From Bacillota bacterium (GTDB lineage Bacteria > Bacillota > Clostridia > Oscillospirales > Oscillospiraceae), in the NCBI GenBank assembly GCA_023406225.1, contig JAEXWS010000033.1:1-62367 (forward strand): 62,367 bases of DNA, written 5' to 3'. Every line of letters begins with the position of its first letter. Position 1 is the stretch's first letter. The translations under genes and the position numbers were made by a program. Under the pieces are notes generated by a model. The model had not been told where the DNA came from, searched no databases, and saw only the letters and a list, made by a program, of their open reading frames with translations. Shown here piece by piece: positions 5,642 through 58,837 of the stretch.

Positions 5642-5665
5642 AGTCCCAAGGAGAAAGGGAACAGC

Positions 5666-23907: not shown

Positions 23908-24011
23908 TTTCATCCTCCAGCTTTCGGCAAAATTCGCTAAAAATGATGATACCACACAATTGCCGGTTTGAAAAGAGGAAAGTGGGGCCTTCCCGCCGCA
24001 AAAACTTTTTC

Positions 24012-38740: not shown

Positions 38741-40743
38741 TTATACAAGCGCCAGCGCCGCATGGTACACCAGGAACGACGCGGCCCAGGCCACCGCGCA
38801 CTGGCTCAGCGCCACGCCCGCCGCCTTCCAGCCGGAGCCCAGCTCCCGCTTCACCGCCGAGATGGCGGCCACGCAGGGGGTGTACAGCAGGGTGAAGATC
38901 AGAAAGCTCAGGGCGGTGACGGGGGTGAACAGCCCGCCCAGGGCCGCGCCCACGTCGGCGGCGGCTCCGGTGAGGATGCCCAGGGTGGAGATGACGGATT
39001 CCTTGGCGATGAAGCCGGTGATGAGGGCGGTGGATACCCGCCAGTCCCCGAAGCCCAGGGGGGCGAACAGCGGCGCCACCCAGGCGCCCATGGTGGCCAG
39101 CAGGCTCTCCGCGCTGTCGCTCACCAGGTTCAGCCGGGTGTCGAAGGTCTGGAGGAACCAGACGATGATGGTGGCGACGAAGATGATGGTGAAGGCCCGG
39201 GTCAAAAAGTCCTTGGCCTTGTCCCAGCAGAGCTGCCACACGCTCTTGGCGGAGGGGAAGCGGTAATTGGGCAGCTCCATGACGAAGGGGACGGGATTGC
39301 CCCGGAAGGCGGTGGCCCCCAGGACCTTGGCGGCGATCACGCCCACCAGGATGCCCGTGACGTACAGCCCGATCATCACCAGCGCGCCGCGGCCGGGGAA
39401 GAAGGCGGCGGTGAACACCGCGTAAATGGGGATCTTGGCGGAGCAGCTCATAAAGGGCGTCAGCAGGATGGTCATCCGCCGGTCCCGCTCCGAGGCGAGG
39501 GTCCGGGTGGCCATGATGGCGGGCACGGAGCAGCCGAAGCCCACCAGCATGGGCACGATGCTCCGGCCGGAGAGGCCGATCTTCCGCAGGAGCTGGTCCA
39601 TGACGAAGGCCACCCGGGCCATATAGCCGGTGTCCTCCAGGATGGAGAGGAAGAAAAACAGAACCACGATGATGGGCAGGAAGCTCAACACGCTGCCCAC
39701 TCCCGCGAACACCCCGTCGATGACCAGGCTGTGGACCACCGGGTTCAGCCCGTAGGCGGTCAGCCCCGCGTCCACCGCGGCGGTGAGGAGGCCGATGCCC
39801 TCCGCCAGCAGATGGGAGAGGAACGCGCCGAACACGTTGAACGTCAGGAAGAAAATGGCCAGCATCACGCCGAAAAACAGCGGCAGGGCCAGATATTTCT
39901 GGGTCACCACCCGGTCGATGGCCTCGCTCCTGGCCCGCTCCCGGGACTGGCGGCACCGCACCACCGTATTCCGGCAGACGTTCTCGATGAAATTGTACCG
40001 CATGTCCGCCAGGCGGCGTTGCGGTCCATGCCCTGCTCGGCCTCCATCTCCTGGATGCTGTGCTCCATCAGCTCCAGCTCGTTCTGGTCCAGCTCCAGCC
40101 GGGTCAGGATGTCCGGGTCGTCCTCGATGAGCTTGGTGGCGGCGAAGCGGACGGGCAGGCGGGCGGCCTCGGCGTGGTCCTCGATCTGGTGGACCACCGC
40201 GTGGATGCAGCGGTGGACCGGGCCGGGGGAGCAGAAATCGTATACCGCGGGATAGACGCGGTTTTTCGCCGTGTGGACCGCCGCCTTCACCAGCTCGTCC
40301 ACGCCCTGGTTTTTCACGGCGGCGATGGGGACCACCGGAATGCCCAGGGCCCGGGACAGGCCCTTTACGTCGATGGTGCCGCCGCTGCCGGACACCTCGT
40401 CCATCATGTTCAGGGCCAGCACCATGGGGATGTGCAGCTCCATGAGCTGGAGGGTGAGGTACAGGTTCCGCTCGATGTTGGTGGCGTCCACGATGTTAAT
40501 GATGCCGTCGGGCCGCTGGTTCAGGATGAAATCCCGGGTGACGATCTCCTCCGGCGTATAGGGGCGGATGGAGTAGATGCCGGGCAGGTCTACCACCGTG
40601 CAGTCCTTCTGTCCCCGGATGACGCCGGACTTCTGATCCACCGTCACGCCGGGAAAGTTGCCCACATGCTGGTTGGCCCCGGTGAGCTGGTTGAACAGCG
40701 TGGTCTTTCCGCAGTTTTGGTTGCCGGCCAATGCAAAGATCAT
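38741..40743 (-). pseudogene. feoB: Ferrous iron transporter FeoB split by a 1-nt deletion at about 40012 (real or assembly error)
   Basis: N-part has GNQNCGKT, DLPG and NMMD; C-part has GYMARVAF, GFGCSVP and LYTPCVA. One extra C restores ...DRNAALADMRY. Confidence 0.85.
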
Positions 40744-41621: not shown

Positions 41622-42929
41622 ATGGGCGGATGGAAGCGGGCCTTGGCGGCCGCCGGCGCGGCGGTTTTAACGGCGTCCCTGCTGTCCGGCTGCGCCGCCG
41701 GGGGGCGGAACACCGTGTGGGACGACGGCGAAAACGCGGCTGAGCCGGAGACGTATCTGACGTTTTTCGGCTTCAAGTACGAGGCGCTCAACGTGGCGGC
41801 CATCGAAAACGCGCTCCACGGCTACATGGAGGCGTATCCCGGCGTTTCGATCTCCTATGACGGGATCAAGGGCCTGGACTATTACGACGTGCTGGAAAAG
41901 CGGCTTTCCACCGGCAACGGGGATGATATTTTCATGGTGGACCACGAACGGGTGCTGGAGCTGGGGGCCCGGGGGCTTCTGGCGGACCTCTCCGGCCTGT
42001 CCACGCTGGAGAGCTTCAGCGACCTGGCGAAGAGCCAGATGGCGGCGGGCGGGGCGGTCTATTACGTCCCCACCTCCATCTCCGCCTTCGGTCTGTACTG
42101 CAACCTGGACCTTTTGGCGGAGCACGGGCAGAAGGTCCCGGAGGATCTGGAGGAGTTCCGGGAGGTCTGCGACGCCTTCGTGGCCGAGGGGATCGTCCCC
42201 ATCGTGGCCAACAACGACATCTCCCTTAAGACCGTGGCCATCGCAAAAGCGATGCTGCCCACCTATCAAAGCGCGGACCCGGCCGCGGCCATCGCCCGCT
42301 TCAACAGCGGCGAAACGGACCTGGCGGAGACGCTGCACCCCGGCTTCGCGCTGGTGGAGGAGATGCTGCAAAAGGGCTGGGTGGACGCGGGCGAGGCGCT
42401 GGAGACGGAAAAGACCCGGGACGACCTGACGCTCTTCGCGGCGGGGGCGCGTCCGTTCATGCTGACGGGGGCCTGGGCCGCGCCGCGCCTGCGGGAGCTG
42501 GAGCCGGACTTCCGCTTCGAGGTGCGCCCCTACCCCATCCTGGAGGACGGGAGCGTTCTGGTCATCAACGTGGATACCCGCATCAGCGTCAACGCCGGGA
42601 GCCCCCATGTGGAGCAGGCGAAGGACTTTGTGGAATACATGACGCAAAAAGACGTGGTGCGGGAATTTGTGGAGAGCCAGGCCTCCTTCAGCCCCCTTGC
42701 GGACAGCGGCCTGGCGGGGGACGCGGCGGTCCAGCCCATCGGCCCGTACCTGAACAATGGGCGCAGCGTGCTGGGGGCGGACGATAACCTGCGCCTTCCC
42801 ATCTGGGACCTGACGCGCCAATGCGTGGTCGGGATGCTGGAGGGGGGCGGCGCGGCGGACGCGGCCGCCCAGATGCGGGCGGAGATCCTGGCCTGGGAAG
42901 AGGCGGAGAAGGAGGACAGCGCGCAATGA
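41622..42929 (+). CDS. Carbohydrate-type ABC solute-binding lipoprotein with no transporter in view
   Basis: Lipobox LSGC; motifs DDIFMV, LADLS and GLYCNLDLL.EHG. ATGA overlap with the downstream kinase. Confidence 0.8.
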   Translation: MGGWKRALAAAGAAVLTASLLSGCAAGGRNTVWDDGENAAEPETYLTFFGFKYEALNVAAIENALHGYMEAYPGVSISYDGIKGLDYYDVLEKRLSTGNGDDIFMVDHERVLELGARGLLADLSGLSTLESFSDLAKSQMAAGGAVYYVPTSISAFGLYCNLDLLAEHGQKVPEDLEEFREVCDAFVAEGIVPIVANNDISLKTVAIAKAMLPTYQSADPAAAIARFNSGETDLAETLHPGFALVEEMLQKGWVDAGEALETEKTRDDLTLFAAGARPFMLTGAWAAPRLRELEPDFRFEVRPYPILEDGSVLVINVDTRISVNAGSPHVEQAKDFVEYMTQKDVVREFVESQASFSPLADSGLAGDAAVQPIGPYLNNGRSVLGADDNLRLPIWDLTRQCVVGMLEGGGAADAAAQMRAEILAWEEAEKEDSAQ

Positions 42930-45436
42930 GGGAAAAGCGCATGTGGCGCGTGATCCTGCTGGGCGTGATGCTGGCGGGCCTTTTCGCCGGCGGCGCCGCG
43001 TATTTGAACAGCGTGCACGACGCCTTGTGGACGAAGGCGGTGGCGGACATCCTGGAGGTCACCGACCAGGGGCGGCACGCGCTGGACACCTACATCGAAA
43101 AGGACCGGGAGACGCTGCGATTGCTGGCCGCCTCCATGGAGAGCATGGACCCGGGCGACACGGAAGAGATCCTGGAGACGATGCAGCGGTACGGTGCGGC
43201 GGAGGGGAATTACCTCTGCGTGGATCTGGAGCGCGGCACGGCCTATACCGATCAGCTGAATGAGGAGTACGCCCTGGACGCGGAGCAGCTTGCGCGGCTC
43301 CGGGCGCTGGAGGGGGCGGGGCTTCGCGCGCCGTTTCTGGACGGGTATACCGGCGTGTGGATGATCGGCATGTATGAACGCTTTCTGTTCGCGGACGGAA
43401 CGGAGGGCTGCGTGCAGCGGTCCCAGCCGGTCTCGGCCATTTCGGACCGGTTTTCCATCTCCTTCTACAATGACCGGGGCTTTTCCTATGTGGTCGACCG
43501 GAACGGGGATATTTTGATCCGCTCCCTGCACCGCAACAGCAACCGCACCTTCCAAAACCTGTTCGACATCATCGACCTGCAAAACAACGCCCCCCAGGAG
43601 CTGGATTCCTTCCGCCGCGCGCTGGAGGAAGGGAAGCGGGGCGTGGCCCGCTTCCGGTACCGGACGGAGGACTACGTGTTCTGTTATGTGCCGCTGGAGA
43701 GCGCGGCGGATTGGGATGTGGTCTCCATCATCCCCAACCAGGTCATCATGGAGCAGGCCGACGGCATCGTCCGCCACTCGCAGCTTTTGATCGTCCTCAT
43801 CCTGGCCGGGGCTTTGGCTTCGGCGGCCGTTTTCCTGACCTACCGGGATTCCACCCGGCGGGTGCTCCGGGCCGAGGAGGAGGCCCGCCGGGCGGCGGAG
43901 AGCGCCAGCCTTGCCAAAAGCCGGTTCCTCTCCAACATGTCCCATGATATCCGCACGCCCATGAACGCCGTCATCGGGATGACGGAGCTGGCGGCGGAGC
44001 ATGCCGACGAGCCGGAAAAGGTCCGGGAGTATCTGAAGAACATCAAGGCCTCCGGCCGGCTTCTGGTGGGGCTCATCAACGACATTCTGGACCTTTCCCG
44101 GATCGAGAGCGGGAAAATGACGCTGGATTGCACCGCCGTCTCCCTGGCGGAATTGATGGAGGACCTGGTGAACGTCGTCCAGCCCGCCATGGAGCAAAAG
44201 GGGCAGGCGTTTCGTGTCCGTTTGCACCAGGTGAAGCATGAGACGCTCTGCACCGACGCGCTGCGGCTCAACCAGGTTTTGATGAATCTCCTCTCCAACG
44301 CAGTGAAATTCACGCCCGAGGGCGGGAGCATCCGCGTGGATGTGACGGAGAGCGGCTCTCCCCGCCCCGGCTGCGCGCGCTTCACCTTCCGTGTGGCGGA
44401 CACGGGCATCGGCATGAAGCCGGAATTCCTGCGGGATATCTTCGACTCCTTCACCCGGGAGCAGGATAGCCGGGTCAGCCGGACCGAGGGAAGCGGCCTG
44501 GGAATGGCCATCACGAAGATGATCGTGGACCTGATGGAGGGATCCATCCAGGTGGAGAGCGCCCCCGGCGAGGGGAGCGTGTTCACCGTTACCCTGGACC
44601 TTCCCCCGGCGGAGGAGCCGCGGGAGGAGCCTCTGCCGCCCATGCGGGTCCTGGTGGCGGACGGCGATTCGGAGGACCTGCGGTCCGCGGAGGAGAGCCT
44701 GCGGGCGCTGGGCGTTCAGGCGGACGGCGCGGCCGACGGGCGGAGCGCCGCGGCCATGGCCGCGGCGGGGGGCTATGCGCTGGCGTTTTTGGGCTGGGAG
44801 CTGCCGGATATGGACGGCGGGCAGGCGGTCCGCGCCGTCCGGGAGGCCCTTGGGGAAACGGTCCCGGTGGTGGTCTGTCCGGCCTGCGGCTGGGAGCAGG
44901 TCCGGGAGGAGGCCCTGCAATGCGGCGCGGCGGGTGTGGTGCAAAAGCCCCTGTTCCGGTCCACGCTCCGCCGGAGCCTCCGGCGGTACGCGCTGCACAA
45001 AGAACCCCAGGCGGCCCGGAGCGACTCCGAAACGCTGTCCGGCCTGCAGATCCTGCTGGCGGAGGACAACCGGATGAACCAGGAGATTGCAAGAGAGCTG
45101 CTGGAGAGCTTCGGCGCCCGGGTGGAGGTGGCGGACAACGGCCTGGACTGCGTGGAGCGATTTTCCGGCGCGGCGCCGGGCTGGTTCGATCTGATCTTGA
45201 TGGACGTTCACATGCCGCTCATGGACGGCTACGAGGCCACCCGCCAGATCCGGGAGCTGGAGCGACCCGACGCGGGCACGGTCCCCATCCTCGCCCTGAC
45301 GGCGGACGCCTTTGCCGAGGACGTGGCGGCGGCGAAGGAGGCGGGAATGAACGGCCACCTGGCAAAGCCCCTGGACATTTCGGTGATGCTGAAAGAGATC
45401 CAGGCGTGTATCGGCCGCACCGGATGGCGCGGATAA
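42926..45436 (+). CDS. Hybrid histidine kinase (Cache-like sensor, HisKA, HATPase, degenerate REC, REC)
   Basis: Motifs FLSNMSHDIRTPMN, GSGLGM and ILMDVHMP. The first REC reads FLGWELPDMDG. Confidence 0.9.
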   Translation: MREKRMWRVILLGVMLAGLFAGGAAYLNSVHDALWTKAVADILEVTDQGRHALDTYIEKDRETLRLLAASMESMDPGDTEEILETMQRYGAAEGNYLCVDLERGTAYTDQLNEEYALDAEQLARLRALEGAGLRAPFLDGYTGVWMIGMYERFLFADGTEGCVQRSQPVSAISDRFSISFYNDRGFSYVVDRNGDILIRSLHRNSNRTFQNLFDIIDLQNNAPQELDSFRRALEEGKRGVARFRYRTEDYVFCYVPLESAADWDVVSIIPNQVIMEQADGIVRHSQLLIVLILAGALASAAVFLTYRDSTRRVLRAEEEARRAAESASLAKSRFLSNMSHDIRTPMNAVIGMTELAAEHADEPEKVREYLKNIKASGRLLVGLINDILDLSRIESGKMTLDCTAVSLAELMEDLVNVVQPAMEQKGQAFRVRLHQVKHETLCTDALRLNQVLMNLLSNAVKFTPEGGSIRVDVTESGSPRPGCARFTFRVADTGIGMKPEFLRDIFDSFTREQDSRVSRTEGSGLGMAITKMIVDLMEGSIQVESAPGEGSVFTVTLDLPPAEEPREEPLPPMRVLVADGDSEDLRSAEESLRALGVQADGAADGRSAAAMAAAGGYALAFLGWELPDMDGGQAVRAVREALGETVPVVVCPACGWEQVREEALQCGAAGVVQKPLFRSTLRRSLRRYALHKEPQAARSDSETLSGLQILLAEDNRMNQEIARELLESFGARVEVADNGLDCVERFSGAAPGWFDLILMDVHMPLMDGYEATRQIRELERPDAGTVPILALTADAFAEDVAAAKEAGMNGHLAKPLDISVMLKEIQACIGRTGWRG

Positions 45437-45441
45437 AGGCG

Positions 45442-45478
45442 GCCCCGCGCGGAATATCCCGCGCGGGGCCGTTTTTTT
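45442..45478 (+). terminator. Rho-independent terminator
   Basis: GGCCCCGCGCGG...CCGCGCGGGGCC followed by a T7 run. Confidence 0.75.
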
Positions 45479-45504
45479 ATATCCGCGCCATGGATAAAAG
45501 ATCC

Positions 45505-45569
45505 TTGACAAGCAGAACTGTAACTGATATAGTTACAGCATCAAAACTGAAACTTTTGAAATTACAGTT
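45505..45569 (+). promoter_or_regulatory. Sigma-A promoter with two CTGTAACT-N5-AGTTACAG operators (Rrf2/HypR-like)
   Basis: TTGACA-17 bp-TATAGT with extended TG. Perfect-arm palindrome at 45518-45538 over the -10, and a degenerate copy at 45547-45567. Confidence 0.8.
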
Positions 45570-45581
45570 CTGGAGGTTCCC

Positions 45582-46598
45582 ATGAAACAAAACAGACGAA
45601 TGGCGCTGGCGGCGGCGCTGGCGCTTGCCCTGCTGCTCTCGGCCTGCGGAAATGCCGGCGGGCAGCCGGAACCGGAGGCGCCCGCCGTCCGGAAGATCAC
45701 GGCGGAAGAGGGCAAGGACCTGATGGACGCGGGGGGCGTGGCGGTGGTGGACGTGCGCCGGGCCGACGAATACGAGGCCGGACACATTCCGGGAGCCGTC
45801 AACCTCCCCAATGAGGACATCGGGGACGCTATGCCGGAGGCGCTGCCGGACCTGGACGCGGCGGTGATCGTCTACTGCCGGACCGGCGTGCGGAGCGCGG
45901 ACGCGGCAAAGAAGCTGGCGGCCATGGGATATACCGATGTGGCGGATATGGGCGGCATCGTGGATTGGCCCTATGACACCGTCACCGGCGGCGAACCGGG
46001 GATCTACGGCCAGTCCGTCCCCACGGAGGAACCGGCCATGGCGGAGGAACCGTCCATGACGGAGGGACCGGCGGAGGAGCCCCAGGCCCCGGCGGAGGAG
46101 CCGCCTGCCGCGGAGGAGCCGCCCCAGGCCGGAGAGGAGCCGGGCATCCTCACGGCCTTCACCGCCACGGACCTGGAGGGCGGCGCGGTGGATGAGTCCC
46201 TTCTGGCGGACTATGAGCTGACCATGGTGAACGTGTGGGCCACCTTCTGCGGGCCCTGCCTGCGGGAGATGCCGGACCTGGGGGAGCTTGCGGCGGAGTA
46301 CAAGGACAAGGGCGTGCAGATCGTGGGCATTGTGTCCGACGCGCTGGCCTCCGATGGCACCATCAGCCAGGACCAGGTGGACCTGGCGAGGGACATCGTG
46401 GACCGGACCGGGGCGGACTATCCCCACATCCTGCCGTCCGAGGACCTGTTCGGCATCCTCGCCCAGATCCAGTTCGTGCCCACCACCTTCTTTGTGGACA
46501 GCACGGGCCATCAGGTGGGCAGCGCGGTGGTGAAGTCCATGGGGAAGGATGAATGGGAGAAAGTGATCGACAAAATGCTGGAGGAGGTGGCGCGGTGA
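45582..46598 (+). CDS. Lipoprotein fusing a rhodanese domain, a Pro/Glu linker and a TlpA-like thioredoxin
   Basis: Lipobox LSAC; rhodanese motifs VDVRR.DEY..GHIPGA and YCRTGVRS; thioredoxin motifs NVWATFCGPC..EMP.L and PTTFFVD. Confidence 0.85.
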   Translation: MKQNRRMALAAALALALLLSACGNAGGQPEPEAPAVRKITAEEGKDLMDAGGVAVVDVRRADEYEAGHIPGAVNLPNEDIGDAMPEALPDLDAAVIVYCRTGVRSADAAKKLAAMGYTDVADMGGIVDWPYDTVTGGEPGIYGQSVPTEEPAMAEEPSMTEGPAEEPQAPAEEPPAAEEPPQAGEEPGILTAFTATDLEGGAVDESLLADYELTMVNVWATFCGPCLREMPDLGELAAEYKDKGVQIVGIVSDALASDGTISQDQVDLARDIVDRTGADYPHILPSEDLFGILAQIQFVPTTFFVDSTGHQVGSAVVKSMGKDEWEKVIDKMLEEVAR

Positions 46599-46741
46599 GC
46601 GTTTTGCGGCGGAACCGGGCGGCGGTGCTGTTTGTGGCGCTGGCTCTGGCGTTCCTGGCCATTGGCGTGTGGCGGGGCGAGGCGGAGGTGGTGCTGCGCA
46701 AGGCGGTGAACATCTGCATGGAGTGTATCGGCCTTGGGTAA
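46595..46741 (+). CDS. CD1871A-like small CXXC membrane peptide
   Basis: 48 aa with one TM segment and the ending RGE...VL.KAVNICMECIGLG. Confidence 0.8.
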   Translation: MSVLRRNRAAVLFVALALAFLAIGVWRGEAEVVLRKAVNICMECIGLG

Positions 46742-47621
46742 ACGGCTGGCCGCGGCCCGGCGGCATGTGCGCGCCTGGGTCCAGATCGGCTTCACCGCCC
46801 TGACGAACGGTTACGCCGCCGGCTTCGTCAAGGGCGAGATCTACCGGGGCCCCACCAAGGCCTTTTGCGTGCCCGGGCTGAACTGCTACTCCTGTCCCGG
46901 CGCGCTGGGAAGCTGCCCCATCGGCGCCCTTCAGGCGGTGCTGGGCAGCCGGGATTACCGGTTTGCCTTTTATGTGGTGGGTTTTTTGATGTTTTTCGGC
47001 GCGCTGCTGGGCCGCTTCGTCTGCGGCTGGCTGTGCCCCTTCGGTCTGGTGCAGGACCTTTTGCATAAGATCCCCTTTGTGAAAAAGCTCCGAAAGCTGC
47101 CGGGAGACCGGTGGCTGAAATATTTGAAGTATGTCATCCTGGCGGGCTTCGTCATCGTCCTGCCCCTGACGGTGCTGGACGTGGTGGGCCAGGGCCAGCC
47201 CTGGTTCTGCAAATATATCTGCCCCTCCGGCACCCTGCTGGCGGGGATCCCCCTGGTGGGGACCAACCCGGCGCTCCAGGGGGCCTTGGGGTGGCTCTTC
47301 ACCTGGAAAGCGGCGGTCCTGGCGGTGCTGGTGCTGCTCTCCGTGGCGGTGTACCGGCCCTTCTGCCGCTATCTCTGCCCCCTGGGGGCGGTATACGGGC
47401 TGTTCAACCCCATCGCCTTCCACCGCTTCCAGATCGACGCGGAAAAGTGCACCCGGTGCGGGAAGTGCCAAAAGGCGTGCAAGCTGGACATCCCGGTTTA
47501 CAAAACGCCCAACAGTCCGGAATGCATCCGCTGCGGCGACTGCCGGCGGGCCTGCCCCCACGGGGCGGTGTGCACGGCCCATCAAATGCAAAAGCGGGAA
47601 AAGGAGGCGTCTGGGGCATGA
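46734..47621 (+). CDS. Membrane 4Fe-4S-binding protein (NapH/MauN/FixG-like)
   Basis: Motifs CYSCP..CP, CGWLCP and CRYLCP, plus two CxxCxxCxxxC clusters and TM segments. Confidence 0.88.
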   Translation: MGKRLAAARRHVRAWVQIGFTALTNGYAAGFVKGEIYRGPTKAFCVPGLNCYSCPGALGSCPIGALQAVLGSRDYRFAFYVVGFLMFFGALLGRFVCGWLCPFGLVQDLLHKIPFVKKLRKLPGDRWLKYLKYVILAGFVIVLPLTVLDVVGQGQPWFCKYICPSGTLLAGIPLVGTNPALQGALGWLFTWKAAVLAVLVLLSVAVYRPFCRYLCPLGAVYGLFNPIAFHRFQIDAEKCTRCGKCQKACKLDIPVYKTPNSPECIRCGDCRRACPHGAVCTAHQMQKREKEASGA

Positions 47622-48058
47622 CGGGAGCGTTTTCCCTGGCGGTCCACGCGCTGGTCTACCTAGACCACAAAAAGACCAGCCTCTCCAGCGAGGCGCTGGC
47701 GGAGAATATCTGCACGAACCCCGCCCGGGTGCGCAAGGTCATGGCCCAGCTCAAGCGGGCGGGCATGATCTCCACCAAGGAGGGCTTCGAGGGGGGCTAC
47801 ACGTTCTCCGGCGACCCGGAGAAGCTGACGCTGGCGGAGGTTGCCCGGGCGGTGGACGCCCGGTTTGTGGAGAGCGCCTGGCGCTCCGGCGGCGAGGACA
47901 TGGAGTGCCTGGTGGCCTCCGGCATGGCGCGGATCATGGACGGCATCTATGCGGAGCTGGACGAACAGTGCCTGGCGCGGCTGGACGGCGTCACCATTGG
48001 AGATATCGGCCGGGAGATTTTCGGCGGGCGGACGCCCGGAAAGGAAAAACGAGCATGA
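47618..48058 (+). CDS. Rrf2-family regulator (HypR/YwnA-like)
   Basis: Motifs FSLAVHAL, SSE.LAENICTNPARVRK, EG..GGY and a second Cys in ECLV. Confidence 0.88.
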   Translation: MTGAFSLAVHALVYLDHKKTSLSSEALAENICTNPARVRKVMAQLKRAGMISTKEGFEGGYTFSGDPEKLTLAEVARAVDARFVESAWRSGGEDMECLVASGMARIMDGIYAELDEQCLARLDGVTIGDIGREIFGGRTPGKEKRA

Positions 48059-49422
48059 GAGAGCTTCATTACGACGCGGTGGTTATCGGCTTCGGCAAGG
48101 GCGGCAAGACCCTGGCGGGGAAGCTGGCGGAGAGCGGCAGGACCGTCGCGCTGGCGGAGATGGACGCGGGCATGTACGGCGGCACCTGCATCAACGTGGG
48201 GTGCATCCCCTCCAAGTCCCTTATCGCCAGCGCATCCCGGGTGGACCCCGCCGCGTCCGGAGCGGAGAAGGGCGCGGCCTTCCGCGCGGCGGTGGCGGAG
48301 AAGCGGCGGCTGACCGCCATGCTGCGGCAGAAGAACTTCGATAAGCTGGACCAGCTTGCAAACGTGGACATTTACACTGGGAAGGCCCGGTTTGCCGGTC
48401 CGCTCCGGGTGGAGGCGGCCCTGGAGGGGGAGACGGTCCTGCTGAACGCAAAGCAGGTCTTTCTCAACACCGGCTCCACCCCCCGCCTCCCGCCCATCAA
48501 GGGCCTGGGGGACACGCCGGGCGTTTACACCAGCCGGGAGCTGATGGACCTGGACGAGCGGCCGGGACGGCTGGTGGTCCTGGGCGGCGGCTATATCGGG
48601 CTGGAATTTGCCTCCATGTTCGCCGCCTTCGGCACCGCCGTCACCGTTTTGCAGGACAGCGGGGTGTTTCTGCCCAAGGAGGACGAAGACGTGGCCGCCG
48701 AGATCAAAAAGCTGCTGGAGGCCCAGGGGGTGGATATCCGCCTGAACGCCGGGACCCGCCGGGTGGAGCCCGGCCCGTCGGGCCCGGTGCTCACCGTGGA
48801 GCGGGAAGGCCGGGAGGAGCGGCTGGAGGCCGACGCCGTGCTGGTGGCCACCGGCCGGACGCCCAATACCGCCGGATTGAACTGTCCGGCGGCGGGCGTG
48901 GAGCTGACGCCCCGGGGCGCGGTGAAGGTGGACGCCCTGCTCCGCACCACCGCCCCCAACGTCTGGGCCATGGGCGACGTGGCCGGGGGCTTGCAGCACA
49001 CCTACGTCTCCCTGGACGATTCCCGCATCGTGTGGGCCCAGCTCTCCGGCGGCGGGACGCGCACCGCCGCTGAGCGGAAGAACGTGCCCTACAGCGTGTT
49101 TCTGCGCACGCCATACTCCCGCGTCGGCATGAACGAGCGGGAGGCCCGGGCGGCGGGGCGGAACGTGCGGGTCGTCCGAATGCCCGCCGCCGCCGTGCCC
49201 AAGGCCCAGGTGTTGAAAGCCTCGGCCGGTTTTTTGAAGGCGGTCCTGGACGCGGACAGCGGGGAGATCCTGGGGGCGATGCTGCTGTGCGAGGAGTCCT
49301 ATGAGACGATCAACGTGGTGAAGCTGGCCATGGACCTGGGCGCGGACTACACGGTCCTGCGGGACCAGATATTTACCCATCCCACCATGACCGAGGCGCT
49401 GAACGATCTGTTCGCGGGATGA
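48055..49422 (+). CDS. Flavin disulfide reductase, RclA/Har/staphylococcal MerA-like
   Basis: Motifs IGFGKGGKTLA, YGGTCINVGCIPSK, GGGYIGLEFA, TYVSLDD.RI and IFTHPTMTEALNDL. No C-terminal CC pair. Confidence 0.85.
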   Translation: MRELHYDAVVIGFGKGGKTLAGKLAESGRTVALAEMDAGMYGGTCINVGCIPSKSLIASASRVDPAASGAEKGAAFRAAVAEKRRLTAMLRQKNFDKLDQLANVDIYTGKARFAGPLRVEAALEGETVLLNAKQVFLNTGSTPRLPPIKGLGDTPGVYTSRELMDLDERPGRLVVLGGGYIGLEFASMFAAFGTAVTVLQDSGVFLPKEDEDVAAEIKKLLEAQGVDIRLNAGTRRVEPGPSGPVLTVEREGREERLEADAVLVATGRTPNTAGLNCPAAGVELTPRGAVKVDALLRTTAPNVWAMGDVAGGLQHTYVSLDDSRIVWAQLSGGGTRTAAERKNVPYSVFLRTPYSRVGMNEREARAAGRNVRVVRMPAAAVPKAQVLKASAGFLKAVLDADSGEILGAMLLCEESYETINVVKLAMDLGADYTVLRDQIFTHPTMTEALNDLFAG

Positions 49423-49426
49423 CGGG

Positions 49427-49464
49427 AAACAGGACCGGCCCCCTGGCGGGGCCGGTCCTGTTTC
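49427..49464. terminator. Bidirectional terminator
   Basis: GAAACAGGACCGGCCCC...GGGGCCGGTCCTGTTTC between convergent genes. Confidence 0.7.
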
Positions 49465-49512
49465 GTGCGGCCGTTCGGAGCCGGGCGGCGCGGGGGAACG
49501 CGGGTCCCCGCT

Positions 49513-50208
49513 TTACCAGCGGTCGGGCCAGCACACCCCGTCCCCGTCCTCCCGGAAGGGCTCCGGATCCACGCCCGCCATCTCCCGGCGGACGGCCTCC
49601 GCCACGTCCGGCACGGTGGTTGGACCGTAATCCGCGAAGGCGGCGCTGCTCAGCAGCACCGCGCCCACCCGCTCCATGTCCGCCAGGTTCGCCCGCTGGA
49701 TCTCCTCCGTCTGGGAGGAGCAGCAGTCCGTGAGGACCACGGTGTTATACTCCAGGGCGATGGCGTCGTAGCCGGTGGTGCGGATGCAGTTGGGGGTGGT
49801 GGTCCCCGCCAGGATGACCGTGCGCACGTCCAGCCGCCGGAGGATGAGGTCCAGCTCCGTCTGGAAAAAAGCGCTCCACCGGGGCTTCCAGATCGTATAG
49901 TCCCCGGGCTTGGGGCGCAGGGCCCGGGGCGCCTGGGCGCTGTTGGGGCCCGTGGAGGCGGGCATGCAGGCCCGTCCCCCCGCCTTCCAGGGCGCGTAGC
50001 GGGTCAACTCCACGTCGCTGCCGTCGGCGCGGTAGATGCGCTTGACGAAAAACACGGGGATGCCCTTGGCCCGGGCCAGGTCCAGCGCCCTGGCGCAGGC
50101 GGGGACCGTCGCCTGGGCGCCCTGGATGCAGTGGCCGCCCCGGGGGTCCACGAAGCCGTTTTCCATGTCGATCAGCAGCAGCGCCGACCGGGTGGGATTG
50201 GATGTCAT
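49513..50208 (-). CDS. Isochorismatase-family cysteine hydrolase
   Basis: Motifs LLLIDMENGF, KPRWSAFFQTELD and AGTTTPNCIRTT (D-K-C triad). Confidence 0.88.
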   Translation of the reverse strand: MTSNPTRSALLLIDMENGFVDPRGGHCIQGAQATVPACARALDLARAKGIPVFFVKRIYRADGSDVELTRYAPWKAGGRACMPASTGPNSAQAPRALRPKPGDYTIWKPRWSAFFQTELDLILRRLDVRTVILAGTTTPNCIRTTGYDAIALEYNTVVLTDCCSSQTEEIQRANLADMERVGAVLLSSAAFADYGPTTVPDVAEAVRREMAGVDPEPFREDGDGVCWPDRW

Positions 50209-50353
50209 AGAAGAAGCCCTCCTTTTCTTGTCCCCTTTAGAGTACCACGCGGAGCCCCGTTCGTCCAGGGGGGGCGTCCGGTCCCCGCGGGTTGACTTTT
50301 TTTCGCCGCAATGCTACCCTCAATATAAAACGCGCCGAAGGGAGGAACGCCGG

Positions 50354-51028
50354 ATGTACCGCATTTTCATCGTGGAGGACGACGCCGCCATCTCCGGCGT
50401 GATGCAGCGCCATCTGGAGAGCTGGGGCGACGCTGTCCGCTGCTGCGAACGCTTTGACCGGGTGCTGGAGGAATTTGCCGCCTTTGACCCCCATGTGGTG
50501 CTGCTGGACGTCTCCCTGCCTTTTTTCAACGGCTATCACTGGTGCCGGGAGATCCGAAAGGTCTCCAAGGTCCCCATTTTGTTCATCACCTCCGCGTCGG
50601 ACGATGTGAACGTGGTGATGGCCATGCAGATGGGCGGAGACGACCTGCTGGCCAAGCCCTTCGATCTCCAGGTCCTCTCCGCCAAGGTCCAGGCCATGCT
50701 GCGCAGGGCCTATGACTTCGGCCCGTCCGCCCGGCTGCTCTCCTGGGGACGGGCGGTGATGGACCTTTCCGCGGGGACCCTCTTTGTGGACGGCGGGCGG
50801 GTGGACCTGACCCGCAACGAGTTCCGTATCCTGCAGATGCTGCTGGAGCACAAGGGCGAGGTGGTCAGCCGGGAGGCCATCATGACCCGGCTGTGGGAGT
50901 CGGACAGCTTCGTGGATGAGAACACCCTCTCCGTGAACGTGGCCCGGCTGCGGAAAAAGCTGGACGCCGCCGGACTGCCGGACGCCGTCCGCACGAAAAA
51001 GGGCGCGGGCTACTGGATGGAGGGATAG
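50354..51028 (+). CDS. OmpR-family response regulator (BceR/GraR-like)
   Basis: Motifs IVEDD, LLDVSLPFFNGYHWC, AMQMGGDD and DENTLSVNVARLRKKL. Confidence 0.92.
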   Translation: MYRIFIVEDDAAISGVMQRHLESWGDAVRCCERFDRVLEEFAAFDPHVVLLDVSLPFFNGYHWCREIRKVSKVPILFITSASDDVNVVMAMQMGGDDLLAKPFDLQVLSAKVQAMLRRAYDFGPSARLLSWGRAVMDLSAGTLFVDGGRVDLTRNEFRILQMLLEHKGEVVSREAIMTRLWESDSFVDENTLSVNVARLRKKLDAAGLPDAVRTKKGAGYWMEG

Positions 51029-52117: not shown

Positions 52118-52885
52118 ATGCCGATTTTGGAAGTGCAGCATCTGCAAAAAATTTACACCACCCGCTTCGGCGGCAACCAGGTGGAGGCTCTGCAAAACGT
52201 CAATTTCTCCGTGGAGCCGGGAGAGTACGTGGCCATCATGGGGGAGTCCGGCTCCGGCAAGACCACCCTGCTCAACATTCTGGCGGCCCTGGACCGCCCC
52301 ACGGCGGGGGAGGTTTTGCTGAACGGCAAGGCCCTGTCCGATATCCGGGAGCGGGATTTAGCGGCCTTCCGCCGGTCCCACCTGGGGTTCGTGTTTCAGG
52401 ACTTCAACCTGCTGGACACCTTCTCCATCCAGGACAACATCTTTTTGCCCCTGGTGCTGGCGGGGGTGGACTTCCGGGAGATGCGCAGGCGGCTGGAGCC
52501 CATCGCGAAGCAGCTTGGCATCGGGGACATTTTATCCAAGTACCCCTACGAGGTCTCAGGCGGGCAAAAGCAGCGGACGGCGGTGGCCCGGGCCCTCATC
52601 ACCGGCCCCCAGATCGTGCTGGCCGACGAGCCGACGGGGGCGCTGGACTCCCGGGCGTCCGACCACCTGCTGGACCTCTTCGGGGAGATCAACGCCGCGG
52701 GGCAGACGGTGCTGATGGTGACCCACTCCGTGAAGGCGGCCAGCCACGCGGGACGGGTGCTGTTTCTGCGGGACGGCCAGGTGTACCACCAGCTCTACCG
52801 GGGCGGCGAGAGCCTGGAGAGCCAGTTCCGCCGCATCTCCGACACGCTGACGGTGCTGGCGGGAGGCGGTGAGTCCCATGCGTAA
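52118..52885 (+). CDS. ABC ATP-binding protein (BceA-like)
   Basis: Motifs GESGSGKT, FQDFNLLD, VSGGQKQR and LADEPTGALD. Confidence 0.92.
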   Translation: MPILEVQHLQKIYTTRFGGNQVEALQNVNFSVEPGEYVAIMGESGSGKTTLLNILAALDRPTAGEVLLNGKALSDIRERDLAAFRRSHLGFVFQDFNLLDTFSIQDNIFLPLVLAGVDFREMRRRLEPIAKQLGIGDILSKYPYEVSGGQKQRTAVARALITGPQIVLADEPTGALDSRASDHLLDLFGEINAAGQTVLMVTHSVKAASHAGRVLFLRDGQVYHQLYRGGESLESQFRRISDTLTVLAGGGESHA

Positions 52886-54818
52886 GACCGGCTTTTTTCC
52901 CCGGCTGGCCCTCATCAACCTGCTGCGCAACGGCCGGTACTATGGGCCGTACCTGCTCTCCTGCGGCGGCACGGCGGCCATGTTTTACATCCTGCGCTTC
53001 CTGACGTGGAGCGAGGGCATCCGCAGCGTGGGCCGGGGCGCGGCCTATCTGGAGACCATGATGGGCATCGGCTGCTTCGTGGTGGCGCTGTTCGCGGCGG
53101 TGATCCTGCTGTACGCCAACAGCTTCGTTATGAAGCGGCGGCAGCGGGAGCTGGGGCTTTACAACGTGCTGGGCCTGGAAAAGCGCCATATCGCCTGGGT
53201 CATGGTCTGTGAGACGCTGTTTTGCGCGGCCGCCGCCCTGTTGGGCGGCCTGCTGGCGGGGGTCTTGCTCTCCAAGCTCATTTTGCTGCTGCTGCTCAGG
53301 CTGGTGCGTCTGCCGGTGTCCTTCGGCTTTTCGGTGAGCGGCCATGGGCTTTTGGAGACGGCGGCGCTCTTTGGCGTGCTGTTTGGGCTGACGCTCCTGT
53401 GCAACCTGGTCCGCCTGGGCCGGTCCAATCCCATCCAGCTGCTGCGAAGCGGGCAGACCGGAGAGCGGGAGCCCCGGACAAAGCGCCTCCTGGCCCTGCT
53501 GGGCCTCGCGGCCCTGGGCGGGGGATACGCCATCGCCCTCACGGTGCAAGATCCCGTGGAGGCGCTGACGCTGTTTTTCGTGGCGGTGCTGCTGGTGATC
53601 GCGGGCACGTACTGCCTGTTCACCGCCGGTTCCGTGGCCTGGCTGAAGCATCTGCGGAACAAGCCCGCATATTACTATCAAACCCGGCATTTCACCGCCG
53701 TCTCCGGGATGCTGTACCGGATGAAGCAAAACGCCGTGGGCCTTGCCAACATCTGCATCCTGGCGTCCATGGTGCTGGTGACGGTATCCGGCACCGTGTG
53801 TTTGTACCTGGGGGCGGAGGTCTCCCTGGACCGCATGTATCCCAACGACATCCTGGTGACGCAGACGCTGGAGGAGGGGACCGACACGGCGGACACGCTC
53901 CGTCAGGCGCGGGCCGCGGCTGCGGCCACGGGCCGCCGGGTGCGGCTGCTGGAGTATGAAACGGCCGCGTCCTTCCACGCGCGCTACAGCGGAAACACCC
54001 TGCTGACGGATCTGAACGCGGAGGGAACGCTTGTGCGGGTGACGGTGCTGACGGCGGAGGAGTACGGGCGGCTGACCGGGGAGACCGTCTCCCTGGAGGA
54101 GGGGGAGGTGCTGGCCTGCGCCCCGGCCCTCCACCTGCCGGAGACGGTCTACTGGGGCGGGACGGCCATGCAGGTCAAAGACCTGCTGGACGCGTTTCCC
54201 GCCGGGGACTTCGCCATGGTCAGCAATGTGGCCGACGTGGGCCTGGTGGCGGACGGAGCGCTGGCGGAGGCGCTGACGGAGACGGATATAGCCCGCAGGA
54301 CCTTCCGCATCCGCATGGACCTGGACGGGACCGACGCGGAGAAGCTGGACTGCGCGGAGGCGCTGCTGGCGGGGTCCGACGGGGCCTACGGCGTCACCAG
54401 CCGCCAGGATATGGCGGCGGAGTTTTACACCATGTACGGCGGCTTTTTGTTCCTGGGCGTTTTTCTGGGGGTGCTGTTTTTGATGACCACGGTGCTCATC
54501 ATCTACTACAAGCAGATCTCCGAGGGGTACGAGGACCAGCGCCGCTACCGGATCATGCAGCAGGTGGGCATGACGCGGCAGGAGGTCCGGGCCTCCGTCC
54601 GCAGCCAGGTCTTGCTGGTGTTCTTTCTGCCCCTGGGGGCGGCGGGGCTGCACATTCTGGCCGCGTTCCCCATGCTCTCCCACATTCTGGAGCTGTTTGG
54701 GCTGTATAACGTGCCGCTGTTCGCCGCCTGCACGGCGGGGACGCTGCTGGCCTTCTGCGCCGCCTACGCGCTGATCTTCGCCCTGACGGCCCGGACGTAC
54801 GACCGCATCGTGAGCTGA
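52878..54818 (+). CDS. BceB-like FtsX-family permease
   Basis: Motifs YANSF..KRRQRELGLYNVLGL, YRMKQNAVGLANICIL and YYKQISEG; about 10 TM segments with a large loop. Confidence 0.9.
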   Translation: MRKTGFFPRLALINLLRNGRYYGPYLLSCGGTAAMFYILRFLTWSEGIRSVGRGAAYLETMMGIGCFVVALFAAVILLYANSFVMKRRQRELGLYNVLGLEKRHIAWVMVCETLFCAAAALLGGLLAGVLLSKLILLLLLRLVRLPVSFGFSVSGHGLLETAALFGVLFGLTLLCNLVRLGRSNPIQLLRSGQTGEREPRTKRLLALLGLAALGGGYAIALTVQDPVEALTLFFVAVLLVIAGTYCLFTAGSVAWLKHLRNKPAYYYQTRHFTAVSGMLYRMKQNAVGLANICILASMVLVTVSGTVCLYLGAEVSLDRMYPNDILVTQTLEEGTDTADTLRQARAAAAATGRRVRLLEYETAASFHARYSGNTLLTDLNAEGTLVRVTVLTAEEYGRLTGETVSLEEGEVLACAPALHLPETVYWGGTAMQVKDLLDAFPAGDFAMVSNVADVGLVADGALAEALTETDIARRTFRIRMDLDGTDAEKLDCAEALLAGSDGAYGVTSRQDMAAEFYTMYGGFLFLGVFLGVLFLMTTVLIIYYKQISEGYEDQRRYRIMQQVGMTRQEVRASVRSQVLLVFFLPLGAAGLHILAAFPMLSHILELFGLYNVPLFAACTAGTLLAFCAAYALIFALTARTYDRIVS

Positions 54819-57589: not shown

Positions 57590-58720
57590 TCACAGCATCG
57601 GCATCCGCTCGTCGTGGTGCCGCAGCAGCGCCTCCGCGCAGGCGTCGATGTCCCCGGCGGCGGTCTCCGGCCCGAAGCTCAGACGGATCACCCCCGCCGC
57701 CGCCCGCTTGGGCAGCTTCAGGGCCGCCACCACGTGGCTGGGCCTGCCCTGGTGGCAGGCGGACCCGGCGGAGATGCAGATGCCCCGGCTCCCCAGGTCG
57801 TTGACGATGTTCTGGCTGGGCCAGCCCTCCAGGGCGGCGGCCAGGATGTGGGGCGCGCCGCCGCCGATAACGCGCAGGTCCGGGATGGCCGAGAGGCGCT
57901 GCACGGCGTAAGACCGCAGCTCCGCCATGCGGCGGAGCGTGTCCTCCAAATGGGCGCACCGCAGCTCCGCCGCCTTGGCGAAGCCCGCGATCTGGGCGGT
58001 GGCCTCCGTGCCGGAGCGCAGGCCGGATTCCTGCCCGCCCCCCGCCAGCAGGGGCCGGGGATTGCGGACCCGGGGCCCGATGTACAGTCCGCCGACGCCC
58101 TTGGGCCCGCCGATCTTGTGGGCGGACACGGCGATGAAGTCCGCGCCCAGGGTCCCGGCGGAGAAGGGGACCTTCAAAAAGCCCTGGACCGCGTCGGTAT
58201 GCAGAAGGGTCTTGGGATTCCTGGCCCGGAGCCCCGCCGCGATCTCGGCGATGGGGAAGACGTTCCCCAGCTCGTTGTTCACCATCATGACGCTGACCAG
58301 CGCCGTGTCCGGTCGCACGGCGTCCAGCACCTGCTGCGCCGTCAGGTCCCCGTTTTCGTCCGGGACCAGGTACGTCACCTCGCACCCCTGCTTTTCCATC
58401 CAGCGGCAGGCCTCCAAAACCGCGCTGTGCTCCACCGCCGTCGTGACGATGTGGCGGCCCAGGTGGCGGTTTTGCCAGCAGGCGGCGGAAACGGCCCAGT
58501 TGTCCGCCTCCGTGCCGCAGGAGGTGAAGAAAAACCGCTCCGGCCCGCAGCCAAGGGCGCCGGCGATGGTCCGCCGCCACGCCTCCACCCGCTTTTTCAT
58601 CTCCTGCCCCAGGGGATACTGGGAACTGGGATTGCCGAAGTCCTCCGTGAGCACTTCATACATGGCGTCCGCCACGGCCCGGGGGACGGGCGTGGTGGCG
58701 GCGTGGTCCAGATAGATCAT
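57590..58720 (-). CDS. Cysteine desulfurase (IscS/NifS group)
   Basis: Motifs YLDHAATT, GNPSS, HTDAVQ, SAHKIGGPKG, RSGT and SAGSAC. Confidence 0.9.
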   Translation of the reverse strand: MIYLDHAATTPVPRAVADAMYEVLTEDFGNPSSQYPLGQEMKKRVEAWRRTIAGALGCGPERFFFTSCGTEADNWAVSAACWQNRHLGRHIVTTAVEHSAVLEACRWMEKQGCEVTYLVPDENGDLTAQQVLDAVRPDTALVSVMMVNNELGNVFPIAEIAAGLRARNPKTLLHTDAVQGFLKVPFSAGTLGADFIAVSAHKIGGPKGVGGLYIGPRVRNPRPLLAGGGQESGLRSGTEATAQIAGFAKAAELRCAHLEDTLRRMAELRSYAVQRLSAIPDLRVIGGGAPHILAAALEGWPSQNIVNDLGSRGICISAGSACHQGRPSHVVAALKLPKRAAAGVIRLSFGPETAAGDIDACAEALLRHHDERMPML

Positions 58721-58837
58721 ATGAAAAACCTCCTGCGGTTGGGGCTTGCCCAACGGCGAAAATACAGATATAATAAACTCCAAATAAGCGCGTTTAAACA
58801 TTATATAAAGGTTTAGCCGAAAGTGCAAGGAGAATCC

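Follow-up and report, generated by a model that had tools for sequence, protein, structure and literature searches.

In Staphylococcus aureus, the Rrf2-type regulator HypR senses hypochlorous acid (HOCl) and diamide through an intersubunit disulfide between C33, located in the alpha2-alpha3 turn, and C99, and the HypR operator is a 12-3-12 repeat (TAATTGTAACTA-N3-CAGTTACAATTA) that overlaps the -10 region, according to the sections on the regulator in Loi et al. 2018 (PMC6067689). Homologues of Escherichia coli RclA from S. aureus and Streptococcus pneumoniae, as well as Bacteroides thetaiotaomicron, which are 47-49% identical to the E. coli protein, all protect against hypothiocyanous acid (HOSCN), and C43 and C48 of RclA are essential, as reported in parts of Meredith et al. 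(PMC9335216). For flavinylated systems, it has been proposed that modules of the NapH/NosR/PceC type conduct electrons through the membrane to redox partners outside the cytosol (passages of Meheust et al. 2021, PMC8238504). Here, we describe an operon of five genes (g1-g5; 45505-49422 with its promoter, the genes themselves spanning 45582-49422) on contig JAEXWS010000033.1 of a Bacillota bacterium of the family Oscillospiraceae; the whole analysed stretch of 62,367 nt is referred to as the window. The operon encodes a rhodanese-redoxin lipoprotein, a small CXXC peptide, a membrane polyferredoxin, an Rrf2 regulator, and an RclA-like flavoprotein. With moderate confidence, we read it as a thiol-oxidant (HOSCN/HOCl-type) stress operon, in which a cytoplasmic reductase would be joined to an outward reducing pathway based on iron-sulfur (Fe-S) centres and cysteines.

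All five genes named in the preliminary description are present on the + strand, and the identities it gave them agree with the Pfam and NCBIfam assignments. They follow one another with overlaps of 4, 8, 4, and 4 nt: g1 (45582-46598, 338 aa), g2 (46595-46741, 48 aa), g3 (46734-47621, 295 aa), g4 (47618-48058, 146 aa), and g5 (48055-49422, 455 aa). The GTG start of g2 forms a GTGA overlap with the stop of g1, g3 starts with TTG inside its 8-nt overlap with g2, and g4 and g5 each begin at an ATGA overlap with the preceding gene. A sigma-70-type promoter on the + strand at 45505-45533 (TTGACA, 17 nt, and TATAGT with an upstream TG as extended -10; 11 of 12 consensus positions) was the sole site in a scan of 45000-50500 (shuffle mean, 0.6), and GGAGG lies 5 nt 5' of the g1 ATG. 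The left boundary of the unit is the intrinsic terminator of an upstream hybrid histidine-kinase gene (45436-45482, +; hairpin 45436-45475, then U7), which has a 17-bp stem and folds at -36.5 kcal/mol (z-score, -6.18). The right boundary is a terminator-like hairpin after g5 (49420-49472, +; hairpin 49425-49465, weak U-tract) with a folding energy of -40.3 kcal/mol (z-score, -5.85). In either case none of 200 shuffles folded as well, and the gene 3' of the operon (49513-50208) is convergent. Because of the overlapping stops and starts, the single promoter, and the flanking terminator hairpins, g1-g5 are predicted to be a single, translationally coupled transcription unit, as had been proposed.

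The regulator and the flavoprotein resemble the HypR-MerA pair. g4 matched the Pfam Rrf2 domain over residues 3-130 (83 bits, cutoff 30), with HypR (NF041852) as its top NCBIfam model and 1ylf and 1xd7 (YwnA) as its nearest solved relatives. The three-cysteine Fe-S ligand set (C-x5-C-x5-C), which in NsrR is C93/C99/C105 (PMC6067689, in its account of NsrR), is missing from g4, where only C97 falls in the ligand region and the next cysteine is C118; by its sequence, g4 is classed as a cluster-less Rrf2 regulator of the HypR/YwnA type. Its three cysteines, C32, C97, and C118, were all retained in 8 of 8 orthologues. C32 is located in ENICTNPARV, in the turn preceding the recognition helix, and C97 aligned with the conserved cysteine of 1ylf and 1xd7, the equivalence to C33 and C99 of HypR being judged by position and model coordinates.

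The -10 hexamer of the operon promoter is covered by a 12-3-12 inverted repeat, operator O1 (GAACTGTAACTGATATAGTTACAGCAT, 45515-45541). By inspection, 16 of its 24 half-site positions equal those of the S. aureus HypR operator as printed in PMC6067689, including a TGTAAC/GTTACA core common to both, and the 3-bp spacer and the -10 overlap are alike. An imperfect second copy, the operator-like element O2 (CTGAAACTTTTGAAATTACAG, 45547-45567), lies in the 5' leader. An RNA hairpin in the leader was considered as an explanation of O2 and rejected: the leader of the window is unstructured (-3.6 kcal/mol, z-score +1.29), and thus O2 is more likely a DNA site. The operator motif occurs at two sites in the 62-kb window, both at the operon promoter. 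Both systems have a cluster-less Rrf2 protein, in which, as judged by position, one cysteine would fall in the turn that leads into the recognition helix and another near residue 99, a regulator co-transcribed with an RclA/MerA-clade flavoprotein, and a 12-3-12 operator over the -10 box (for HypR-MerA, as described in those sections of PMC6067689). They differ in that the regulator gene here comes fourth and not first, the operator would govern three additional envelope genes, the third conserved cysteine is at 118 rather than 142, and a second operator-like site is found in the leader.

The flavoprotein g5 belongs to the class I disulfide reductases (Pyr_redox_2, 202 bits; Pyr_redox_dim, 85 bits) with a CxxxxC pair (C45-INVG-C50, within CINVGC) and a His442/Glu447 dyad. 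Among NCBIfam models, it scored 550.8 bits with RclA and 468.1 bits with the HOSCN-reductase MerA. Its best solved match was 6kgy/6kyy (447 bits), followed by 8uub, 8ajj, and 8ajk (346, 339, and 335 bits, respectively), and the next enzyme class reached 214 bits. We take 6kgy to be E. coli RclA, its name in the PDB table being generic; approximately 222 of 449 aligned positions (~49%) were identical between it and g5. This identity falls within the 47-49% range of the HOSCN-protective homologues compared in the available parts of PMC9335216, the C45/C50 pair is equivalent to C43/C48, and the fold, the domains, and the His/Glu dyad are also shared with the HOSCN reductases RclA of E. coli, Har of S. 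pneumoniae, and MerA of S. aureus. Together with the operator and its core, this identity bears out the likeness to HypR-MerA and RclA that the preliminary description had drawn. Unlike E. coli RclA, g5 is under an Rrf2 protein and not the AraC-type RclR, is embedded in an envelope operon, and is not accompanied by rclB or rclC. A true mercuric reductase was rejected as an identity for g5, since its C-terminus (NDLFAG) has no cysteine pair and TIGR02053 scored 321 bits against a cutoff of 454. Judged from its sequence, g5 is likely an HOSCN reductase of the RclA/MerA/Har clade.

The membrane protein g3 has a Fer4_5 core of four transmembrane (TM) helices and two 4Fe-4S motifs that form a cytoplasmic 2x[4Fe-4S] domain (C239-C274), and its N-terminus MGK, from the TTG start, agrees with the annotated homologues. 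The best NCBIfam model was NapH/MauN (TIGR02163; 68 bits, cutoff 213), and the nearest relatives, from Oscillospiraceae-type genomes and metagenome-assembled genomes (MAGs), are 79-83% identical. Cysteines are found on both predicted faces: CxxCP/CP (C45, C51, C54, and C61) and CX3CP (C159 and C163) motifs in the outer loops, and CX3CP pairs (C97/C101 and C211/C215) at the inner face. In 28 aligned sequences, C51, C54, C61, C97, C101, C159, C163, C211, C215, and the eight ferredoxin cysteines were invariant and C45 was nearly so, and at least three CX3CP motifs occurred in 107 of 109 full-length polyferredoxin representatives. From the charge bias over 28 sequences, loops 1 and 3 are predicted to face outward, and the ferredoxin domain, loop 2, and the N-terminus to lie inside. 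An AlphaFold 2 model of g3 had a mean predicted local distance difference test score (pLDDT) of 89 and a predicted template modelling score of 0.85; a Foldseek search of the PDB gave no match to its membrane part at an E-value of 0.001 or below, and the ferredoxin domain alone aligned weakly.

The Fer4_5 core of four TM helices, the two inner CX3CP pairs, and the cytoplasmic 2x[4Fe-4S] domain are held in common with the NapH-like modules as characterised in passages of PMC8238504. The partner here is a thioredoxin-like protein with a CXXC peptide, rather than a flavinylated FMN-binding domain or NapG, and the passages on NapH-like conduits in that study make no mention of such a partner. E. 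coli NapH, 23% identical to g3, retains no more of these motifs than those of the ferredoxin domain and the two inner CX3CP pairs; the six outer-loop cysteines of g3 are absent from it, with a gap at the loop-1 cluster and WEWINP instead of CKYICP. No nap, nos, or pce genes were found near g3, and no nap genes were detected in the window scan.

The lipoprotein g1 has a lipobox (LLSAC) with Cys22. Its rhodanese domain (residues 40-129; Pfam Rhodanese, 75 bits, cutoff 22) carries the catalytic Cys99 in CRTGVRS and is connected by a Pro/Glu-rich linker to a TlpA/ResA-like redoxin domain (residues 192-331) with the motif WATFCGPC (C223-G-P-C226). The redoxin part scored 43 bits with both Redoxin and AhpC-TSA of Pfam, and its best family models are the reductants ResA, TlpA, and DsbE; the score with the ResA NCBIfam model (54 bits, cutoff 170) supports only a family-level assignment. 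The fusion is common in Clostridia: of the 120 listed relatives of g1, all carry both Pfam domains and a CxxC, which takes the CGPC form in 93, while 118 keep the rhodanese loop motif C-x4-[RK]-[ST] and 103 have a lipobox-like signal.

g2 belongs to the CD1871A family of CXXC motif-containing proteins (NCBIfam NF040920; 67 bits, cutoff 32). The mechanically called open reading frame (ORF) starts at 46553, and the GTG at 46595 was taken as the start because the homologues measure 44-64 aa. The peptide has a basic N-terminus, a single TM helix, and a C-terminal C41-M-E-C44-IGLG, and its charge bias predicts an orientation with the N-terminus inside and the C-terminus outside. In 34 aligned homologues, G24, C41, E43, C44, G46, and G48 were invariant, and the C-terminus of the family is nearly fixed (IC[LM]ECIG[IL]G). 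As a side observation, a separate family of ~255-270 aa (P0464, P0489, P0495, P0508, P0472, and P0435) has four N-terminal TM helices without a Pfam domain, then a fifth TM helix and a C-terminus of the form KA..IC.ECIG.G, as in the CD1871A peptide. An outward CXXC fits this four-TM family with its CXXC tail and two polyferredoxin-TM-CXXC fusions, although, in view of other fusions weighed below, the peptide fusions are ambiguous as evidence of topology.

Natural fusions also bear on the arrangement of the larger partners. Among 29 longer relatives of g3, 13 were polyferredoxin-redoxin fusions, and in all 13 exactly one additional TM helix lies between the ferredoxin domain and the redoxin CxxC, which leaves one domain on either side of the membrane. 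One of the 29 was a polyferredoxin-Rrf2 fusion, and another (P0361, 789 aa) carries a GltD-like NAD(P)H flavoprotein (Fer4_20 and Pyr_redox_2) N-terminal to the polyferredoxin, whose sequence hints that NAD(P)H feeds the polyferredoxin module in some organisms. A search of 150 representatives for the CXXC-peptide motif gave two matches, both within ferredoxin motifs. In five polyferredoxin relatives (P0243, P0244, P0245, P0247, and P0255), the C-terminus is extended by 3-6 hydrophobic helices that lack both a Pfam match and a CxxC. When g3 and g2 were folded together, the score was 0.50, and the best of three controls scored 0.00; the runs shared at least 98% of their contacts, with a partner pLDDT of at least 69. 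Of 157 solved complexes and 215 mismatched pairs, 116 and 2, respectively, attained the mark used for such scores, and among scores of 0.60 or lower, only 18 of the 157 solved complexes passed along with both of the passing mismatches; since author-built alignments were used for g3 and g2, these calibration counts hold roughly.

Related loci were collected by scanning one genome per GTDB species with an alignment of g3 relatives. At least 601 stretches matched and at least 595 were confirmed, of which the best 80 were kept; locus counts below refer to these, and neighbouring genes were counted by tblastn with parts of the window. The hosts were Oscillospiraceae, Lachnospiraceae, Christensenellaceae, Peptostreptococcaceae, and other Clostridia, with eight loci from Treponema and other Spirochaetota and one from Synergistaceae. 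In 76 of the 80 loci, the peptide lay no more than 300 bp away from the polyferredoxin (ORF clustering added 2 more), in 67 a redoxin domain lay within 1 kb, and 64 had both. The corresponding numbers for the genes outside this set were 7 for Rrf2, 4 for an RclA-like gene (>50% identity), and 3 for a rhodanese. When the count was confined to the 51 loci whose flanks each measure 3 kb or more, the peptide was present in 48, redoxin in 43, Rrf2 in 6, and the RclA-like gene in 3. No other neighbour family recurred in more than 7 loci when 803 neighbour ORFs from the 80 loci were clustered. The conserved unit is therefore the triad of redoxin, CXXC peptide, and polyferredoxin and not the five-gene set, whose cross-genome conservation the preliminary description had put forward as a check: Rrf2 is missing nearby in 73 of the 80 loci and the RclA-like gene in 76. 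The triad is a general module that has been recruited into an Rrf2/RclA regulon here and in a few other lineages.

Individual neighbours are worth recording. In L047, a BlaI-like repressor and a 777-aa BlaR1-like M56 sensor (2867-5920) are located directly 5' of the CXXC peptide and polyferredoxin, in the usual place of the redoxin. The redox chaperone Hsp33 lies two genes 3' of the triad in a Treponema MAG (L070, 8092-9057), and a nitroreductase directly 3' of it in a Ruminococcaceae locus (L079, 6861-7391); these two are isolated hints of a redox-stress context.

Where Rrf2 and an RclA-like gene accompany the triad, their arrangement varies. The window has the order rhodanese-redoxin, CXXC peptide, polyferredoxin, Rrf2, and RclA-like gene; L004 and L014 have the same order with a redoxin in first place; in L068 the RclA-like gene precedes the rhodanese-redoxin, peptide, polyferredoxin, and Rrf2 genes; and in L078 the Rrf2 and RclA-like genes sit between the rhodanese-redoxin and the peptide and polyferredoxin. 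L001, L009, and L022 have Rrf2 only, without the RclA-like gene. Both L004 (Lientehia hominis) and L014 (Aminicella lysinilytica DSM 28287) are cultured. The RclA-like gene of L014 (7325-8815) matched in two pieces, called as ORFs of 84 and 378 aa, which could reflect a frameshift or a draft assembly error.

The operator follows this linkage. The layout of TTGACA and operator seen in the window recurs in L004, L009, L014 (with a variant palindrome), L068, and L078, and the palindrome is kept in L078, L068, L004, L009, and L022, the repeat of L078 being a perfect 12-3-12. It precedes the first triad gene, not rrf2, in the window, L004, L009, L022, and L078, while in L068 it precedes the RclA-like gene, which is followed by the triad. 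A second, O2-like element was also found in L068, L009, L001, and L004, and L001 keeps only this element. With a relaxed motif, 24 matches were obtained in the 80 loci and the window, compared with a mean of 7.6 in 20 shuffles, and at triad promoters the motif occurred only in Rrf2-bearing loci (L001, L004, L009, L022, L068, L078, and, as a variant, L014). In a quick maximum-likelihood tree of 78 polyferredoxins, from which L020, L030, and L045 were left out owing to in-frame stops in the matched segment, the Rrf2-linked loci were scattered, and well-supported branches forced at least four changes. The recurrence of the Rrf2/RclA linkage in four gene orders argues for selection for co-regulation.

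From these observations, we infer the inducer, the substrates of the enzymes, the electron donor, the order of the carriers, and the direction of flow as follows. The operon would consist of two modules. In module A, g4 and g5 would act as a pair of the HypR-MerA/RclA type: an Rrf2 dimer would sit on O1 over the -10 box, and probably also on O2, until thiol oxidants (HOCl, HOSCN, or diamide-like compounds) oxidise the cysteines of g4. By analogy, a disulfide would then link C32 to C97' of the other subunit, and the dimer would come off the DNA. The cytoplasmic reduction of HOSCN or a related oxidant by g5 would in turn draw on NAD(P)H and the C45/C50 pair. Module B (g1-g3), the widespread membrane triad, would export reducing equivalents. 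Its cytoplasmic 2x[4Fe-4S] domain may take electrons most likely from reduced ferredoxin, with entry from an NAD(P)H flavoprotein in some relatives, and pass them along the CX3CP-bearing helices, as cluster ligands or redox-active pairs, to the cysteine motifs of the two outer loops of g3. From there, they could reach the outward CXXC of g2, the CGPC of the lipid-anchored TlpA-like domain of g1, or both. The TlpA-like domain would keep surface thiols reduced, and its CGPC may recycle the fused rhodanese Cys99 after oxidation or persulfidation.

No conserved cytoplasmic donor gene was found beside the triad, and Pfam assigned unrelated functions to 72 adjacent same-strand ORFs. The RclA-like protein was considered as the general electron donor of the polyferredoxin and rejected, its gene being absent within ~6 kb in 76 of the 80 loci. 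Class I disulfide reductases pass electrons to a dithiol, not to Fe-S centres. As most triads are without g4 and g5, a hand-over from g5 to the triad is unnecessary.

A functional parallel of module B is DsbD/CcdA with TlpA/ResA/CcmG or Etrx, in which, by analogy, a membrane protein likewise stands beside an anchored thioredoxin-like reductant and reducing power is probably delivered to the outer face. In the operon, by contrast, a NapH-like Fe-S protein in which 18 cysteines are conserved takes the place of the membrane partner, together with a 48-aa CXXC peptide, and the likely electron currency is ferredoxin, not thioredoxin. The DsbD/CcdA domain (PF02683) was found in none of the five operon proteins (Pfam) and in none of the 42 other window ORFs (NCBIfam); with no DsbD domain, the triad is not a member of that family. 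We infer that it may work like DsbD/CcdA-TlpA by means of an unrelated Fe-S membrane protein. The outward wire of the preliminary description, running from the Fe-S protein through the CXXC peptide to the TlpA-like domain, has gained comparative support in this respect from the synteny of the triad, the fusions with one TM helix, the outer-loop cysteines that NapH lacks, and a weak but control-clean co-fold.

A bolder version can be put forward tentatively; taken as one joint claim, it is possible but doubtful. The triad would then represent an undescribed class of transmembrane disulfide reductase. A NapH-derived Fe-S protein would draw electrons at the ferredoxin level and, through cysteine or Fe-S centres on both faces, deliver them to an external dithiol, with chemistry like that of ferredoxin:thioredoxin reductase but across the membrane and with the 48-aa peptide as an obligatory subunit or shuttle. 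In many Clostridia, and in some Spirochaetes and Synergistetes, it would stand in for DsbD/CcdA or complement it. In the window, a HypR-type sensor would wire it into a two-compartment defence against host HOSCN/HOCl, and the fused rhodanese cysteine would be a recyclable surface scavenger. Ferredoxin:thioredoxin reductase and heterodisulfide reductase perform Fe-S-mediated disulfide reduction as soluble or peripheral enzymes and offer a possible precedent for the step from one-electron Fe-S chemistry to a two-electron dithiol; they are a mechanistic lead, with no sequence relationship to the operon proteins shown.

Several findings weigh against reading g1-g5 as a thiol-oxidant stress operon with an outward pathway. 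At the level of the proteins, g5 falls under the equivalog cutoffs of both of its NCBIfam models (740 for RclA and 650 for the HOSCN-reductase MerA), as does g4 for HypR (70.2 bits against 180). TM1 of g3 is weakly hydrophobic, without a Kyte-Doolittle peak above 1.5, so that the outside placement of loop 1 rests on the charge bias and the fusions, and Fe-S clusters at the outer face of the membrane would be unusual. An NCBIfam scan found the CD1871A module in none of 20 polyferredoxin fusions, and the co-fold lends weak support to a modelled g3-g2 complex. Five redoxin-TM-CXXC fusion ORFs would, if genuine, place the CXXC tail in the cytoplasm; they may be read-through artefacts of overlapping genes. 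At the level of the loci, the 73 triads without Rrf2 and the 76 without an RclA-like gene (within ~6 kb) include close relatives such as L019 (77% identity), L005, and L015, where both genes are absent despite full flanks. The Rrf2 label is not clustered on the quick tree, 118 of 500 shuffles being as low, and the association between the rhodanese fusion and the RclA-like gene, described below, loses significance (p=0.098) once distance thresholds exclude L078.

The absence of Rrf2 and RclA-like genes from most loci means that the triad does not need g4 and g5, and the coupling may be regulatory only. It also favours the view that two unrelated modules share a transcript, the triad having a housekeeping or other role and the Rrf2/RclA pair providing ordinary cytoplasmic oxidant defence, with neither a common stressor nor a hand-over between them. 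Otherwise, the triad is surrounded by housekeeping genes of unrelated function, and S. aureus HypR-MerA works alone, according to the sections of PMC6067689 that describe it. However, the HypR-like operator stands before the first triad gene and not before g4 in the window and four other loci, and before the RclA-like gene and triad in L068; the same membership recurs in four gene orders at scattered positions of the tree; and the start and stop codons overlap. With these points set against it, we regard the separation into two unrelated modules as unlikely.

The rhodanese part of g1 suggests another function. Of the 4 RclA-linked loci, 2 have the rhodanese fusion, as does the window, compared with 1 of the 76 others (Fisher's exact test, p=0.0056, uncorrected for relatedness and counting L078, where rrf2 and rclA sit between redoxin and peptide). 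This co-occurrence, and the intact rhodanese loop fused to a CGPC redoxin and conserved in 118 of the 120 listed relatives, would fit a reactive-sulfur or thiosulfate system, in which thiosulfate or polysulfide would donate sulfane sulfur to the surface rhodanese, the polyferredoxin would supply the electrons for the TlpA-like domain to convert the persulfide to H2S, and g5 would handle cytoplasmic persulfides or polysulfides. Single-domain rhodaneses can use thioredoxin as an acceptor. On the other side, a rhodanese accompanies the triad in only 3 of the 80 loci, the regulator and operator are HypR-like and not of a persulfide-sensor type, and g5 groups with the HOSCN-reducing RclA homologues, which together make a sulfur system quite improbable compared with oxidant defence.

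The direction of flow might also be reversed, with the TlpA-like protein and the peptide oxidising exported cysteines and the polyferredoxin draining the electrons inward, in the manner of DsbA/DsbB. The sequence does not fix the direction, and NapH-like proteins have been proposed to serve both reductases and oxidases (passages of PMC8238504). We nevertheless consider inward flow very unlikely: the redoxin motif is the thioredoxin-type CGPC in 93 of the 120 listed relatives and its best family models are reductants, the hosts are fermentative anaerobes, and co-regulation with oxidant defence argues for repair over oxidation. CcoG and TlpA have roles in copper handling. A copper function, with g5 as a Cu(II) reductase, g3 as a CcoG-like cupric reductase, and the TlpA-like domain reducing copper-binding cysteines at the surface, would agree with the first report of RclA as a Cu(II) reductase (PMC7527725, in part) and with the weak CcoG matches of some polyferredoxin fusions (E-values of 1e-4 to 1e-7, far below the cutoff), but it is highly improbable, given that scans of the operon and window gave no copper chaperone, P-type ATPase, or CsoR/CopY-type regulator.

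As to novelty, the preliminary description had presented the combination of genes as not known from a described system. This stands in that no functional description of the triad, the CD1871A peptide, or the five-gene operon was found in the literature, in a search to which supplementary tables did not belong, and CD1871-type locus tags there referred only to an unrelated ABC permease. The triad is, on the other hand, neither rare nor unrecognised in databases, as NCBI has named the peptide family. How strictly anaerobic gut Firmicutes keep their surface thiols reduced and survive host HOSCN and HOCl is poorly understood. If reducing power is indeed exported through Fe-S centres, the triad, with its at least 595 loci, would give hundreds of species a counterpart of DsbD/CcdA that works by a new mechanism. 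The operon, together with its cultured relatives L004 and L014, provides a natural handle on the triad, namely a promoter with its operator, a predicted class of inducer, and a partner enzyme. Read as a thiol-oxidant stress operon, it would take the HypR/RclA paradigm beyond pathogens into commensal Clostridia and beyond the cytoplasm into the envelope.

The rest of the window is a segment of a Clostridia chromosome with ~65% G+C and an amino-acid-fermenting gene content. Three hybrid histidine kinase/response-regulator paralogues lie within 15 kb (31188-34004, -; 34038-36674, -; 42821-45436, +); the third ends just 5' of the operon, and no link between the three kinases and the operon was seen. 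Two ORFs (18358-21570, +, 1070 aa; 52869-54818, +, 649 aa) have a coding-like pattern of G+C at third codon positions and no NCBIfam match at an E-value of 1e-15 or below. In an 821-aa ORF at 57590-60055 (-), the match to a NifS/IscS-like cysteine desulfurase spans only residues 446-815, and the long stretch N-terminal to it represents either a start called too early in the high-GC DNA or a fused domain that escaped recognition. FeoB (38741-40743, -) is divided between two overlapping ORFs, with the N-terminal G-domain at 39904-40743 and the permease part at 38741-40003, which could be due to a frameshift, a pseudogene, or a sequencing error. A HadBC-like 2-hydroxyisocaproyl-CoA (2-hydroxyacyl-CoA) dehydratase cluster with an activator, a coenzyme A (CoA)-transferase, and a tripartite ATP-independent periplasmic (TRAP) transporter occupies 29-7434, 13453-15255, and 22516-24018; a PrdR-like sigma-54 activator and rpoN are found near it, and it is probably a sigma-54-controlled amino-acid fermentation cluster.

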